The notes beneath the pieces are model-generated. The model saw only the letters and a list, made by a program, of their open reading frames with translations, had not been told where the DNA came from and ran no database searches. The position numbers and the translations under genes are program-made. A stretch of DNA of 64,000 bases, taken from positions 32,001 through 96,000 of IMG/VR virus record IMGVR_UViG_3300002835_000001, one strand, 5' to 3'. Shown here one piece after another: positions 38,017 through 54,386 of this stretch. The DNA comes from a virus. Taxonomy: Duplodnaviria; Caudoviricetes. How positions within the stretch are numbered: the first letter of the stretch is position 1; each line of letters starts with the position of its first letter.

Positions 38017-38823
38017 TTAAATTAAACTTTTTGGGGGTTGTGTTAATCCTGATGGTAGGTATTCGTTGAAGTTTTTATATATATGGTTGAATAATTTAGT
38101 TGCATACTCTTTATTATGTTTTGGTCCTGGATGGGTACCATCAACTCCCAAATCAATAAAAATTCCATAATTACCATCAAATCTATTTGGTTCATTATAG
38201 TCTATTGGGATATTTCTGAATCCATCCCATAACCAATTGCATTTTTTATCTTTTAAAAAATACTTAATTAATAAATGATTTTTATACCAATTTATAAAAT
38301 CTTCATTTTCGTTTTGTAATTCTACTAAATTTTTTTGTATTTTTATACCTTCTTCAGTTTCTTCCATAAATCCCCAAGATGATGTCGGCATAAAAGGTTC
38401 TACATTATTATCCTTAGTATAAAATTCTCTCCTAAATGAGTGTGGGTACATTATTAAAACTAAATCTGGTTTAATCAAATCGTAATAACTCATTAAACAT
38501 CTTACCACAAAATCTCCACTTCTACCGCCAGTCCCAAAATTAAAATTGACACCATTCGGTATTAATTTACAAAATTGATGCGGCCACGTTTCGTAATCAT
38601 TAACCGCAACACCTTCGGTAAACGAACAACCTAATGACATAACTTTAAAACCTTCTTTTTTTATACTATCACCTCTAAATCCTAATTCATTATAGGTGTA
38701 GGTACACAGTCCTGTATTATCTGATCCCGATGTTTTGAATATTTTGTTTTTTCGTTCATCTAATGAATATTTGTAAGATGAAATCTCAAAGGTTTCAGGA
38801 GTCCAATATTTTAATGATTCCAT
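38017..38823 (-). CDS. SGNH-hydrolase-like protein
   Basis: SLGCSFTEG..ETWP; NFGTGGRS; DGTHPG. Confidence 0.6.
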   Translation of the reverse strand: MESLKYWTPETFEISSYKYSLDERKNKIFKTSGSDNTGLCTYTYNELGFRGDSIKKEGFKVMSLGCSFTEGVAVNDYETWPHQFCKLIPNGVNFNFGTGGRSGDFVVRCLMSYYDLIKPDLVLIMYPHSFRREFYTKDNNVEPFMPTSSWGFMEETEEGIKIQKNLVELQNENEDFINWYKNHLLIKYFLKDKKCNWLWDGFRNIPIDYNEPNRFDGNYGIFIDLGVDGTHPGPKHNKEYATKLFNHIYKNFNEYLPSGLTQPPKSLI

Positions 38824-39873
38824 TTAAATTAATGTTTTGTTAGTGTTATCTACAAACTCATATAGGTTATGAAATAGATTTTGATTTTTCCATATTTTAT
38901 TTAATTCTTTTTTAAATAAATGATGTTCAGGATGTTCGATATCCCATACTTGCTTTAATTTAAATTCACCTTCAGAGAATGTACCCCAATTAGTTATCTT
39001 ACCAAAGAATACGTTTACCTTTTTACCAAAAATAGAATACATCAGGTTATAAAATTCTTTCATTTCCATATAATTAGAATCTTGTACAACGAAGGATGTT
39101 TTCACATTTATTGGTAGAGTGCTTATGAATCTAAGATTACTTAATAAGTTCCCCCAATTACCCCCTAATCTTGTTTTATTTTCATAAGTGTCCTTTGTAC
39201 CCGCATCTATACTAATTTCACAAGTATGTACAAACTTATGAACATTTGGCATACTATCCCACATTTCTTTATTCCACATTGATGCATTTGTGTGAAGGTG
39301 TATAGATTTTAAATTTGGATATTTTTTGGGATTAAAATTTCTTAAATAATTTCTAAACCCAACCGACACAAAAGGATCTCCAGAACCTGTAATGTATAAT
39401 GTTTTTACGTATTGTGAAAAGTAATTATCAATATCTTCAATTGTCTTTTCTACTCGTTTTATACCTTTACTGTCTTCAACAATTAAATCTACCCTACATG
39501 ATGGACATTTGTAATTACAAGTCCTATCAAAATTCATTACCAAATAATCGGGTGTATTATTTGTTACAATCGGACTATTAATGTTTGAATCTGATTTTAA
39601 AGTAACAGGTCCTGATGTTACTCCGTAATTTACTAATTTACTTAAATAGGGACAAAGTTCTTTATTACAATACTTAAATGAACCATCTAATATAGAATTT
39701 CTAATATCAATAATTGGTTCGCTATTATAAACATCTTTTAATGGGATTTCACCAAGTTCTACTTTATTGGGTAACCAAGATGGACAGCACACAAAACAAA
39801 CATTGTTATGTATTTCTAACGATGTAAATGGTACACTACAAAAATAATTTTTTAAATCAATCTTATTACTCAT
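38824..39873 (-). CDS. radical SAM protein with N-terminal SPASM/Twitch-like Cys cluster
   Basis: FCSVPF..CC; RTCNYKCPSC; ITGSGDPF; HTN. Confidence 0.85.
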   Translation of the reverse strand: MSNKIDLKNYFCSVPFTSLEIHNNVCFVCCPSWLPNKVELGEIPLKDVYNSEPIIDIRNSILDGSFKYCNKELCPYLSKLVNYGVTSGPVTLKSDSNINSPIVTNNTPDYLVMNFDRTCNYKCPSCRVDLIVEDSKGIKRVEKTIEDIDNYFSQYVKTLYITGSGDPFVSVGFRNYLRNFNPKKYPNLKSIHLHTNASMWNKEMWDSMPNVHKFVHTCEISIDAGTKDTYENKTRLGGNWGNLLSNLRFISTLPINVKTSFVVQDSNYMEMKEFYNLMYSIFGKKVNVFFGKITNWGTFSEGEFKLKQVWDIEHPEHHLFKKELNKIWKNQNLFHNLYEFVDNTNKTLI

Positions 39874-52742: not shown

Positions 52743-53415
52743 ATAATGTATTAGTGTAAGTTATTGAATCGTTTAATAATTTAGGATTAATCCATCCATG
52801 AACAATTACATGGTATCTATCTTCGTTAGAATTATTCCAAACCGCGTGTTCATTTCCTAAATCAAGGAATACACCTCTACCTTTTTTAAATGGGACTAAT
52901 CCATGGTCTTTAAATACGAACTGACAACCCTCAGGGTTGTTTATTGCTATATTAAGTGGTCCAAAAATTCTTCCTTTACCATCGGTGTGAGGCATAACAA
53001 ACCCGCCAGACTCTAACTTCATAATTCTAACTCTATCATATTGTTCATATCCTAATGATTTTATAAAGTTAGTTAATTTTGGGAGATATTCGCAAACATC
53101 GGTCCAATGATAATTCGCCTCTTCTTGCGTGTTGAATCCGTATCTGTCGAAGTGTTCTGTCTTAGTCGAATCGATTCCGTGTAACGTCACTGCGTTCCAT
53201 CCTTCGTGATTATATGATTTAAGTTTATCTTTATCCCTATGTTTGACAAAATATGTTTTTTCTAATAATTTAATTTCTTCTAACATCCCATCAAAATCAT
53301 TATCAAAATCAATCACAGAGTACGGCCAATTACAATTTGTATCAAATATATTTTCAGGTATACCATTAGATGTCCAACTATTAGTTAACGCGTCATCAAA
53401 AAAATTTTTTATCAT
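52723..53415 (-). CDS. aspartyl/asparaginyl beta-hydroxylase-like 2OG-Fe(II) oxygenase
   Basis: RVRIMKL..GG..PHTD; EHAVWNNSNEDRYH. Confidence 0.8.
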   Translation of the reverse strand: MIKNFFDDALTNSWTSNGIPENIFDTNCNWPYSVIDFDNDFDGMLEEIKLLEKTYFVKHRDKDKLKSYNHEGWNAVTLHGIDSTKTEHFDRYGFNTQEEANYHWTDVCEYLPKLTNFIKSLGYEQYDRVRIMKLESGGFVMPHTDGKGRIFGPLNIAINNPEGCQFVFKDHGLVPFKKGRGVFLDLGNEHAVWNNSNEDRYHVIVHGWINPKLLNDSITYTNTLYGHNSR

Positions 53416-54386
53416 ATTAATTTCTTTTTTACCAACTCTGGGCTTCTTTTACTTATCATAACATCTGTTGCACAATGACAAATATGCCATGGACAGGTAA
53501 TAGGACCAGTTGGCCATTTTATTTCCTCTAATTTATTAATATTACCAAGATTAAAACCAACACAATTACCTCGTTTTATTTCACCATCGGCAAAAATAAA
53601 TAAAGATTCTAATCCAATGTCACATTGATACCCAAAGAAATTACTTAATCCTTCATTAATGTAGTCAACAGCATCTGCTTTTGTATCAACGGTACCGTCA
53701 GATAAAATAAAATGTGCACCAATTAATGCTGTTTTATTAACTGTTGGTATTAATGTTTTTGTGTTAACTCTATTGTCACCTTTAAACCATTCTAATTGTT
53801 CTTCAGTATAAACCAACGTATCTCTATCGAGTTGGTCCCAATCAAGTATTTTTACTGCCTCCATATTAAAATATTGCATCACATCACTTTCCTTAGTTGT
53901 ATTAAACATATTAACGGCAACCTCCCAATGTTTTGGATCCATCATAATCCTTAAAGAACAATAACAATTATCTACAGATGCTTTAATTTTTTCAAGAACT
54001 TTATTCTTATCACCATATTGTGGATGATAAGAAAATACTATATAATTAACATATTTTGATAGTTCTGAATAATATTCAACATTCCTTGTCCCATTTGATG
54101 TTAAACCAACTGTACTTCCCTTTTCATGTATCATTTTACACAAATCAAGTAAAAATGGTGACATTGTTGGTTCACCTCCAGCGATTGATACGTGTATTTT
54201 TGGATATCTTACAAATAATTCATCGAAGAACTTTTTAACCTCCTCCCAAGTGTAACCATGATTATGTCCACTATGTAAAGCATCGACACAATAAGCGCAT
54301 TTATTAGAACATATTGTATTAATTACCCACGTTACCTGTAAAACGTCAGGATGGTTATTAATTACTTCATTTATTTTTACTCTCAT
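53412..54386 (-). CDS. radical SAM protein
   Basis: NTICSNKCAYC; AGGEPT; TSNG; C-terminal CPWHICHCATD. Confidence 0.85.
   Translation of the reverse strand: MRVKINEVINNHPDVLQVTWVINTICSNKCAYCVDALHSGHNHGYTWEEVKKFFDELFVRYPKIHVSIAGGEPTMSPFLLDLCKMIHEKGSTVGLTSNGTRNVEYYSELSKYVNYIVFSYHPQYGDKNKVLEKIKASVDNCYCSLRIMMDPKHWEVAVNMFNTTKESDVMQYFNMEAVKILDWDQLDRDTLVYTEEQLEWFKGDNRVNTKTLIPTVNKTALIGAHFILSDGTVDTKADAVDYINEGLSNFFGYQCDIGLESLFIFADGEIKRGNCVGFNLGNINKLEEIKWPTGPITCPWHICHCATDVMISKRSPELVKKKLI

Follow-up and report, generated by a model that had tools for sequence, protein, structure and literature searches.

A short C-terminal peptide, roughly Lys-Thr-Leu-Ile at the free carboxylate, is shared by unrelated proteins of one gene module in a group of large, uncultured lake-water phages. 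The window analysed here, a stretch of 64,000 nt from such a phage, contains eight successive minus-strand genes (38017-43870) that all end in [K/N]-x-[L/I]-[I/L], and the same class of tail was found at 48460 and 49227 (Table 1). The tail occurs far beyond chance, is restricted to the module and is kept as a peptide by selection. Its most probable role is that of a docking or address label, of which we found no description in the literature that we searched.

Table 1. Genes of the module in the window. The last six residues are given for proteins ending in the tail motif, the tail being the last four.
Position	Strand	Product	Length (aa)	C-terminus	Remarks
38017-38823	-	f1 protein	268	PPKSLI	Tail codons 38020-38031, after Pro-rich linker
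38824-39873	-	Radical SAM enzyme (f3)	349	TNKTLI	Pfam PF04055
39874-41043	-	f2 protein	389	IPKTLI	
41043-41774	-	Sulfotransferase-like protein (f4)	243	TTKTLL	
41774-42454	-	f4 paralogue, sulfotransferase-like	226	KGNHLI	N-x-L-I variant
42457-42759	-	Small protein with invariant cysteines (f6)	100	STKTII	
42761-43333	-	2OG-Fe(II) oxygenase (f0)	190	YKKTLL	Pfam PF13640
43340-43870	-	f14 protein	176	KTKSLI	Usually first gene after hub
43889-43978	-	Tiny ORF	29	untagged	Directly after hub gene
44003-45502	-	Hub protein	499	untagged	Ligase-like, Hint and Cys-rich peptide
45529-45744	-	DUF2061 membrane protein		untagged	Pfam DUF2061, E 3.6e-15
45744-46124	-	Adenylyl/cytidylyltransferase-like protein		untagged	Weak NCBIfam adenylyltransferase matches
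46121-46555	-	APS kinase		untagged	APS_kinase
46710-48374	-	Carbamoyltransferase		untagged	Carbam_trans
48460-49227	-	DUF6071 (SGNH-like) protein	255	KKSKLI	Pfam PF19547
49227-52742	-	B12-binding and radical SAM protein	1171	ILRNLI	Pfam PF02310, PF04055
53412-54386	-	Radical SAM enzyme	324	VKKKLI	Pfam PF04055; membership doubtful

Occurrence of the tail in one gene module

The earlier note had listed eleven C-termini, eight of them on consecutive genes, and all were recovered exactly. A tagged run of eight was reached in 0 of 100,000 permutations of the gene order in the window. For the tail statistics we used 1757 unique proteins from the window and 136 related loci. LI was the end of 17.9% of these proteins; among spurious ORFs that overlap in this AT-rich DNA the figure was 0.7%, and at internal positions it was 0.67%. 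K[TS][LI][IL] was terminal in 11.9% versus 0.028% internally. The consensus was [K/N]-[T/S/K/N]-[L/I]-[I/L]-COOH, always at the extreme end of the protein. The last residue (p0) was I or L in 97% of tails, and p-2 was T or S in 58% and K or N in 31%; basic residues at p-3 to p-5 preceded the two aliphatic terminal residues.

Tail presence was all-or-none by family: 18 of 87 protein families were tagged at 70% or more and 59 at 10% or less. All 52 unique f4 members carried the tail, which the orthologues of the gene at 41043 retained at 24-93% identity, and all 15 unique f14 members ended in KSLI, KSLL or KTII. In f3, the hydrophobic pair was terminal in 57 of 57 unique orthologues, with KTLI in 41. 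The tagged fraction was 84% in f0 (140 unique members) and 72% in f1 (58 unique members), whose orthologues ended in QNLI, SKLI, RKLI, KALI or KRLI, each after an unrelated linker. Orthologues of the f4 paralogue at 41774 ended in NYLI, NQLI, NELI, NTLI, NSLI or NALI; those of the gene at 48460 ended in RKLL or KKLI and, in one case, EIFF; and those of the gene at 49227, at 67-98% identity, ended in RNLI, KRLI, NKLI or TKLI after differing upstream residues. The gene at 53412, also counted as tagged in the earlier note, is a doubtful member of the set: GKLI was present only in its 94%-identical orthologue, and the others ended in VKGN, KFIK or RKIF.

The tail was absent from the remainder of the window. 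In a complete 335,630-bp relative, 9 of the 10 genes directly after the hub gene (described below) were tagged, a few further tagged genes lay 8-23 kb upstream, and the remainder of its 416 ORFs were at background. Distant homologues outside the module were found without the tail. In f2, 17 of 21 proteins inside the module were tagged versus 11 of 44 distant homologues in other phage contexts, and cyanophage P-SSM7 has two annotated 2OG-Fe(II) oxygenases without the tail, one being the match at 29% identity. From these sequence comparisons, the tail appears to have been gained in this phage clade.

Tagged families with an assignment were mostly of protein- or peptide-modifying types (radical SAM, 2OG oxygenase, Asp/Asn beta-hydroxylase, SET); sulfotransferase-like proteins were also tagged. 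Of the folds named at the outset, radical SAM and 2OG oxygenase were confirmed by Pfam. Sulfotransferase is a lead from an Atlas feature search that pointed to Sulfotransfer_1/2 clusters, and 'SGNH-like' for the f1 protein, which had no Pfam hit, is based on the motif GCSFTEG and weak GDSL/DUF6071 matches. The f2 protein had no match in Pfam or NCBIfam, the f14 protein no significant family match, and the AF2 model of f6 no clear PDB match in Foldseek. The DUF2061, adenylyl/cytidylyltransferase-like and APS kinase genes of the same operon, which probably supply PAPS, were untagged; by family, the genes at 45529-48374 were tagged at 0% (f9, f11 and f13) or 19% (f10). The split between supply and tailoring enzymes is blurred by the untagged carbamoyltransferase (46710) and Asp/Asn hydroxylase (52723) and by some f1 paralogues inside the run that lacked the tail. 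Fibre genes adjoin the module.

Selection on the peptide

The tail was kept in orthologues down to ~25% identity, with preceding stretches of 6-16 residues that differed in sequence and length. In the f6 alignment, a conserved K-x-x-K-T-[LI]-[IL] was preceded by a linker of 7-16 residues, variable in both respects. Codon use in the tail equalled that of the gene bodies (Leu TTA.68, TTG.13 and CTA.11 in tails;.68,.13 and.08 in bodies), and the same was true of Lys and Thr codons. Within f3 alone, the tail was written with ACA, ACT, ACG or ACC, with TTA, TTG or CTA and with ATA or ATT, followed by TAA, TGA or TAG; all tails together likewise used all three stop codons, in many downstream contexts. 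Amino-acid diversity was 0.35-0.43 at the last two positions versus 0.6-0.76 at p-4 to p-11, and at these last two positions synonymous diversity peaked while amino-acid diversity reached its minimum. Since the tail is conserved across orthologues with varying linkers, body-like codons and all three stops, we conclude that selection acts on the peptide and not on a DNA repeat, as had been proposed from the differing codons in the window. In the AF2 model of f6, the one family modelled, residues 97-100 had a pLDDT below 50 and followed a helix at 83-97, and the tail is predicted to lie in an exposed, unstructured segment.

The arrangement of the genes could suggest that the tail is a by-product of some signal in the DNA or RNA where genes meet (translational coupling, a promoter or a cassette recombination site) or of AT-rich codons before stops. 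Six of the eight genes in the run end directly at the following start or overlap it, and a seventh ends 6 nt before it, so that the tail codons fall within the initiation region of the next gene; moreover, the gene sets are reshuffled between phages like cassettes. However, the motif was in register with the stop codon and not with the next start, the spacing ranging from -1 to +6 nt. Two tagged genes had no start at all within 55-85 nt; for the gene at 38017, which closes the run, the stretch without a start codon is 55 nt. Other tightly coupled genes lacked the tail, substitutions within it were conservative (I/L/F/M), and neither the codon use, the spurious ORFs nor the background level outside the module of the complete relative fits such an origin. 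A junction signal at the DNA level was largely rejected, with no fixed register to the downstream start and no nucleotide conservation beyond that of the amino acids, and we regard the by-product explanation as very improbable.

The untagged hub gene

The hub was the sole conserved protein of the module that was neither tagged nor part of the supply genes, and it travels with the tagged genes. Of the 92 loci with four or more tagged genes, 62 contained it, and a 912-aa homologue heads a further set (including L060-L070 and L097-L101). Loci with neither form were mostly short contigs or were interrupted by a contig end. Runs of tagged genes were headed by the hub or the 912-aa homologue, and genomes with scattered tagged genes still encoded the hub 25-50 kb away. 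Every hub gene was followed by an ORF of 24-49 aa, of the type ...IGxLI..ANS or ...KVKHL.

In the AF2 model of the hub (mean pLDDT 82), residues 1-275 form a permuted ATP-grasp ligase-like domain, an assignment at the level of the fold, as solved ligases gave no sequence-level match. Its structural matches were glutathione synthetase-like proteins (Z 8.3), YgiC (7uka; Z 8.1) and glutathionylspermidine synthetase (Z 7.8), with weaker matches to RimK, LysX/ArgX and TTLL. Residues ~280-458 have a Hint/intein fold with a His-Asn end (Z 12-14.6 against intein and Hedgehog Hint structures), followed by a 41-aa peptide with eight cysteines. This peptide was hypervariable, including its own C-terminus, and about 30 residues of the hub were invariant. 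The hub is a candidate reader of the tail or a candidate substrate of the tagged enzymes.

Possible roles of the tail

The interpretation that we favour, tentatively and at a little less than even confidence, is that the tail is a non-covalent docking handle on the tailoring enzymes of the module, with one conserved partner as reader and the hub as the best candidate for it. The tail is a short linear motif on a flexible, variable linker. A reader binding it could gather small single-domain enzymes (radical SAM enzymes, 2OG and Asp/Asn hydroxylases, SET methyltransferases and sulfotransferase-like proteins) at a common substrate whose own sequence would be too variable for recognition. This reader may be the conserved ligase-Hint body of the hub (460 residues), perhaps acting with the tiny companion peptide. 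The same tail logo was seen in three hub clades with mutual identities of only ~27%, which, together with the invariant hub residues, argues for a conserved reader; this invariance would, however, suit a conserved host reader equally well. One lineage has a hub homologue with three tandem Hint domains in place of the Cys-rich peptide, which counts against docking, as do the blurred split between supply and tailoring enzymes and the tagged families that have no assigned function.

The fold of the hub suggests another role, which we consider unlikely: the tail could be the carboxylate substrate of its ATP-grasp ligase, in a new protein-conjugation chemistry. The terminal Ile or Leu carboxylate would be activated and then joined to an amine, possibly the new N-terminus or a conserved Lys of the hypervariable Cys-rich peptide released by the Hint domain, and the enzyme would be tethered or capped covalently. 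The hub would then act as a ligase that consumes itself, capping or tethering the whole enzyme set with a variable knot-like peptide. In favour of this role, the best matches of the hub N-domain are ligases acting on peptide C-terminal carboxylates, and one of them, YgiC, is cited together with YjfC as a peptide-spermidine ligase in PMC12568646. No C-terminus in the module other than the tail is conserved, that of the Cys-rich peptide being hypervariable, and its terminal, predictedly exposed position would suit a substrate. The hub co-occurs with tail-bearing proteins, as a ligase-substrate class requires, with the ligase assigned by fold (Z ~8). The known protein-modifying ATP-grasp enzymes RimK, TTL/TTLL and LysX/ArgX act on flexible C-terminal tails, but the tails that they are known to ligate are acidic, unlike Lys-x-Leu-Ile. 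An ATP-grasp-class ligase beside proteins with a flexible conserved C-terminus is common to the module and to RimK-S6, TTL/TTLL-tubulin, LysX/ArgX-LysW, glutathione synthetase, glutathionylspermidine synthetase and YgiC/YjfC; the known substrates are acidic tails or glutathione, whereas here the putative ligase activity is fused to Hint and peptide. Against ligation also stand the middling fold matches without sequence-level counterparts among solved ligases, the consumption of one hub molecule per enzyme molecule, the lack of an evident purpose for enzyme-peptide conjugates and the three-Hint variant without a Cys-rich peptide.

Equally unlikely, in our view, is a degron or remodelling signal for a host AAA+ protease (ClpXP or FtsH) that would limit the lifetime of the enzymes during infection. 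The tail resembles the ClpX C-motif-2 of MuA (C-terminus RRKKAI) in that basic residues precede small or aliphatic ones at a free, here predictedly exposed, C-terminus. Its invariance across diverged phage clades is what a conserved host reader would predict. However, the tail is confined to the tailoring enzymes of one module and is missing from the supply enzymes transcribed with them and from the remainder of the genome; a timing degron leaves this distribution unexplained. The Thr/Ser preference at p-2, a further difference from C-motif-2, is not known to play a part in recognition by ClpX. Less probable still is sorting into a compartment or the virion, although such systems are characterised by just such a common C-terminal address on unrelated enzymes, as in encapsulin cargo-loading peptides and peroxisomal PTS1 (SKL-COOH), and fibre genes lie next to the module. 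Radical SAM and 2OG enzymes require cofactors of the cytoplasm, so that there would be little point in loading them into virions. Furthermore, the tail consensus differs from these signals, the logo having no Gly-Ser-Leu core of the encapsulin type; the module maps and Pfam scans contained no shell gene, and no import receptor is known for this system; and T4-type capsid targeting is N-terminal.

The tail also partly resembles class I PDZ ligands (x-[S/T]-x-hydrophobic-COOH): its free C-terminus is aliphatic, but Thr or Ser stands at p-2 in only 58% of tails. No phage-encoded PDZ-like reader, a possibility raised in the earlier note, was found: PDZ domains (PF13180, PF17820) gave no match in four related phage records, one of them 100% complete, while 14 of 14 control genomes matched. 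The proposed shared label on unrelated folds was borne out across families along with the selection on the peptide; the suggested readers (scaffold, PDZ-like, capsid or compartment, ClpX) are hypothetical. The link between the tail and the neighbouring hub gene, and the predominance of modifying enzymes among the tagged proteins, go beyond that note.

Docking on a single reader would have counterparts in dockerin-cohesin cellulosomes and in the short linear motifs by which trans-acting enzymes dock in PKS/NRPS lines (beta-hairpin docking domains), which likewise combine a common C-terminal handle, one scaffold reader and pluggable enzyme sets. Dockerins, however, are folded modules of ~70 aa in secreted complexes, and the PKS/NRPS motifs belong to megasynthases; the phage handle has 4-6 residues at a free carboxylate in a peptide-modification module, with a candidate reader. 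RiPP pathways with leader peptides and RREs similarly bring several tailoring enzymes to one precursor with a hypervariable core through a conserved element that lies beyond this core. Here the polarity would be the opposite, the enzymes carrying the short peptide and the precursor the large conserved domain, and Pfam scans of 27 tagged or module proteins showed no RRE/PqqD-like domain.

Organelles, encapsulins and cellulosomes all use common C-terminal peptides as addresses or for docking; to our knowledge, no phage is known to encode a set of protein-modifying enzymes marked in this way. In the present module, ~18 unrelated families retain a handle of four residues, which ties them to a gene for a ligase, a Hint domain and a hypervariable peptide. 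If it recruits enzymes to that peptide, it would be a new solution to the recognition problem that RiPP pathways solve by leader peptides, and would offer a portable tag by which enzymes could be plugged into such a pathway; if it serves as a ligase substrate, it would define a new system of protein conjugation. In both cases, the tail is of practical use for recognising module genes in unannotated phage genomes. We found 781 homologues of the hub, a gene that is abundant in lake metagenomes and carries no annotation.

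The shared tail in the gene run

All eleven C-terminal tails listed in the earlier note were verified by reading the 3′ ends of the genes. Eight of these tagged genes, whose products end in K-T-L-I or a close variant, form an uninterrupted run and three lie further upstream (see table). The genes between 38017 and 63947 are all on the minus strand and densely packed, and the remaining minus-strand genes lack such an ending save one (FKLF), which bears out the claim that genes elsewhere mostly do without the tail. Across the window, [LI][ILF] is the ending of 14 of the 75 genes, including a spurious antisense ORF. 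The observed run length was matched in 0 of 100,000 permutations of gene order. The shared tail is confirmed and is out of the ordinary. The GC minimum of the window (0.245-0.28) lies over 38-44 kb.

The antisense ORF (106 aa) overlies the tagged gene for a 100-aa Cys protein. Its IL ending is coincidental, it is conserved solely because the sense gene is conserved, and it leads longest-ORF gene calling astray.

Coordinates of the tagged genes and associated features
Position or family	Strand	Feature	Ending or basis
38017-43870	-	Run of eight tagged genes	In order: KSLI, KTLI, KTLI, KTLL, NHLI, KTII, KTLL, KSLI
38824	-	Tagged radical SAM enzyme	Pfam
42457-42759	-	Tagged 100-aa Cys protein	Invariant cysteines
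42761; families f8, f64	- (42761)	Tagged 2OG-Fe(II) oxygenases	Pfam
48460	-	Outlying upstream gene, DUF6071	SKLI; Pfam
49227	-	Outlying upstream gene, radical SAM enzyme	RNLI; Pfam
53412	-	Outlying upstream gene	KKLI
Family f124		Tagged Asp/Asn beta-hydroxylase	Pfam
Families f62, f29		Tagged SET-domain methyltransferases	Pfam
Family f17		Tagged GDSL protein	Weak Pfam match
42446-42766	+	Spurious antisense ORF	IL
33609-37961	-	Fibre protein, 1450 aa
43889-43978	-	Tiny ORF, 29 aa, directly after hub gene	Untagged; matches no family
44003-45502	-	Hub protein	Untagged
44003-44131	-	Cys-rich peptide of hub
45529-46555	-	DUF2061 protein, transferase-like protein, APS kinase	Untagged
55366-59421	-	Three tandem radical SAM paralogues	No conserved tail
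L065:3230-5968	+	912-aa hub homologue of one lineage	Also in L063, L066, L068, L097, L098, L101
L037:14234-17227; L081:14646-17363; L081:18019-20139; L051:12742-15825		Glycosyltransferase-like proteins, 700-1000 aa, adjoining fibre genes

Selection on the peptide

Within the run of eight, six genes touch or overlap the start codon that follows and another ends 6 nt short of it, so that the tail codons fall in the initiation region of the following gene. The tail might then be a by-product of a DNA signal. However, its register is fixed relative to its own stop codon, whereas the stop-to-start spacing ranges from -1 to +6 nt, and behind the tagged genes at 38017 and 48460 no start follows for 55-85 nt. 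In 136 related loci on uncultured viral contigs, orthologues of each tagged gene end in [K/N]-x-[L/I]-[I/L], even at ~25% identity; the residues ahead of the tail vary freely and the downstream sequence differs too. As for the outlying tails, those at 48460 and 49227 were kept in orthologues and that at 53412 was not. The tail codons vary among orthologues (TTA/TTG/CTA; ATA/ATT/ATC; ACA/ACT/ACG/ACC), and all three stop codons are used.

Among 427 unique tagged proteins, the use of Leu, Lys and Thr codons in the tail equalled that in the gene body (Leu:.68/.13/.06/.01/.11 in the tail vs.68/.13/.09/.01/.08 in the body). A slight excess of ATA at the last Ile is also found in untagged genes ending in Ile. 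At the last two positions, amino-acid diversity is minimal and synonymous diversity maximal. Compared with the AT-rich background, LI ends 17.9% of real genes but 0.7% of overlapping spurious ORFs, and it occupies 0.67% of internal protein positions. On the strength of register, orthologue conservation, codon usage and background, we reject the DNA signal, which we consider almost certainly wrong. The proposal that selection acts on the peptide rather than on the DNA held up, since codon use, stop-codon variety, synonymous diversity and orthologue conservation agree.

The last residue is I (.78) or L (.19), preceded by L (.79) or I (.16), then by T (.41), K (.18), S (.17) or N (.13), and at the fourth position from the end by K (.57) or N (.19); the three positions before that are rich in K, T and N. 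In the alignment of the 100-aa Cys protein family, the length of the linker before the tail spans a range of 9 residues, and in the AF2 model of this protein the last four residues have pLDDT values <50. The tail is a peptide-level motif at a free C-terminus on a flexible linker.

Distribution of the tail and its bearers

All proteins from the loci were clustered, and the 87 families having four or more unique members were counted. Tagging was bimodal: 18 families were tagged in ≥70% and 59 in ≤10% of members, with 10 intermediate. We made the genome-wide count on a complete relative (335,630 bp, 416 ORFs), where the tail occurs on nine of the ten genes directly after the hub gene and on a few more 8-23 kb upstream; elsewhere in the genome it is no more frequent than among spurious ORFs. 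The run of 7 observed in this genome was reached in 1 of 20,000 permutations. The family of the 389-aa run protein (f2) is tagged in 17/21 members inside the module vs 11/44 in other phage lineages. Of the 2OG-Fe(II) oxygenases annotated in cyanophage P-SSM7, the two examined, which include a 29%-identical match, have no tail. When the radical SAM family was surveyed by 150 cluster representatives, a hydrophobic-pair tail was present in 12 of the 20 nearest vs 13 of the remaining 130, which are more distant; the tagged ones among these lie on contigs of 1.7-2 kb, too short for gene context. The tail is confined to tailoring enzymes of one module.

A search of 50,697 GenBank phage records matched neither 38-44 kb nor 1-20 kb at the DNA level, and neither the radical SAM enzyme nor the hub at the protein level; only the 2OG oxygenase has relatives there, which are distant and belong to cyanophages, pelagiphages and Methylophilales phages. 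The search of bacterial and archaeal species genomes for relatives of the radical SAM enzyme was negative.

Large glycosyltransferase-like proteins ending in DKLI (families f128 and f22) were considered as tag bearers and judged untagged, because the ending lies within a conserved C-terminal stretch common to untagged paralogues that end in ...DKLIN. The four glycosyltransferase-like proteins of L037, L081 and L051 have a common C-terminal C-P-V-x-K-G-T-K-x-Q-F-E-C stretch. The ...IDKLI ending of some of them mimics the tag, yet it seems to be part of the conserved C-terminal region.

The tagged proteins had been described as belonging to unrelated folds. Pfam identified the radical SAM enzymes and 2OG oxygenases, and the Cys-rich protein has invariant cysteines in its family alignment (no clear PDB match to its fold was found); the paralogues at 41043 and 41774 may be sulfotransferase-like according to an Atlas lead only. 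For several other tagged families, the scans gave no assignment. SET, Asp/Asn hydroxylase and prolyl/lysyl-type 2OG families are established protein or peptide modifiers, so the assigned tagged types are mostly protein- or peptide-modifying enzymes. The APS kinase, adenylyltransferase-like protein and DUF2061 membrane protein of the same operon, which would supply PAPS, are tagged in no case. These three genes, encoding a two-helix membrane protein, a small HxGH adenylyl/cytidylyltransferase-like protein and the kinase, always occur together upstream of the hub and may be a compact PAPS-supply set with the small transferase in place of ATP sulfurylase.

One of the three tandem radical SAM paralogues has a SPASM domain. 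Similar arrays occur in unrelated phage contigs (L110, L113), beside untagged homologues of the 389-aa protein.

The hub protein and possible readers of the tail

Genes usually run in the order carbamoyltransferase, APS kinase, transferase-like protein, DUF2061 protein, an untagged 500-aa hub, 8-14 tagged genes, and then large glycosyltransferase-like proteins and fibre genes. The hub has 781 metagenomic homologues, every one unnamed, and searches against solved structures gave no match at the sequence level. In its model (mean pLDDT 82), residues 1-275 are closest to glutathione synthetase-like proteins (Z 8.3), E. coli YgiC (8.1) and glutathionylspermidine synthetase (7.8), with weaker likeness to TTLL, LysX/ArgX and RimK; a Glu-x-Asn motif at residues 22-24 fits a permuted ATP-grasp fold. 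Residues ~280-458 have a Hint/intein fold (Z 12-14.6). An invariant His-Asn is followed by a hypervariable peptide of 28-41 residues with 6-8 cysteines, modelled as disordered. These peptides often have a common C-P-K-x-x-P-x-C core and one conserved Lys and otherwise vary freely; those of clade B begin with C-W-C instead.

Of the 92 loci that carry four or more tagged genes, 62 contain the hub. A second group of loci, among them L060-L070 and L097-L101, have a 912-aa homologue at the head of the tagged genes. It lacks the Cys-rich peptide; past the SHN at the end of its ligase-Hint body come three complete Hint domains in tandem, each with Cys first and HN last, separated by spacers of 2-3 residues (AP, RA/RF, KF). 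The other hub-less loci are mostly short contigs or interrupted by the contig end. In two genomes, the hub lies 25-50 kb from scattered tagged genes. In 45 related loci, a very small ORF (24-49 aa) comes right behind every hub gene; its two sequence types, ending in ...IGxLI..ANS or ...AVVxAIKxKHL, track hub clade.

The earlier suggestion of an address or docking label is supported in part: the motif is peptide-level and module-restricted. As for a PDZ-like reader in the phage, none was found, no PDZ domain being encoded in four related phage records. In the reading that we prefer, somewhat short of even odds, the tail is a non-covalent docking handle that gathers enzymes at a common substrate. 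One conserved reader would bind the tail and bring small single-domain enzymes onto this substrate, whose core would be too variable for the enzymes to recognize directly. The conserved hub body is the best candidate for the reader, though a doubtful one. Complex prediction with the hub (499 aa) and the 100-aa tagged protein, from their family alignments and without controls, gave a score of 0.03 (mark 0.32), which speaks neither for nor against. A co-evolving reader would have been indicated if the tail changed from one hub clade to another, but no such lineage-specific switch was seen: the tail logo is identical in clades A, B and C, whose mutual identity is only ~27%. Alternatively, the tail could provide a carboxylate substrate for the ligase of the hub: ligases of this structural class work on peptide C-terminal carboxylates, and the tail is the sole conserved C-terminus of the module. 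We regard this as unlikely, and equally so a degron of the MuA type read by a host protease; a sorting signal appears more improbable still. The tail is similar in logic to dockerins, PTS1, encapsulin cargo peptides, PDZ ligands and the tails on which ATP-grasp protein ligases act, though it does not show the defining features of any of them.

No account of such a tag on phage C-termini, of ATP-grasp fused to Hint, or of a comparable phage RiPP turned up in our literature searches. The nearest precedent is Iyer et al. 2010 (PMC2938197), who treat cyanophage Syn9 with its dioxygenases arrayed in tandem, as well as operons of hydroxylase, sulfotransferase and PAPS synthetase for which a role in modifying tail-collar or collagen-like proteins is proposed. 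In the light of that work, the neighbouring fibre rather than the Cys-peptide is a possible substrate, and the 1450-aa protein might serve as such for the hydroxylases and sulfotransferases. This fibre protein is encoded directly downstream of the tagged run and contains long Ser/Thr-rich near-tandem repeats with units like SSSVATTTSGLSSSI.
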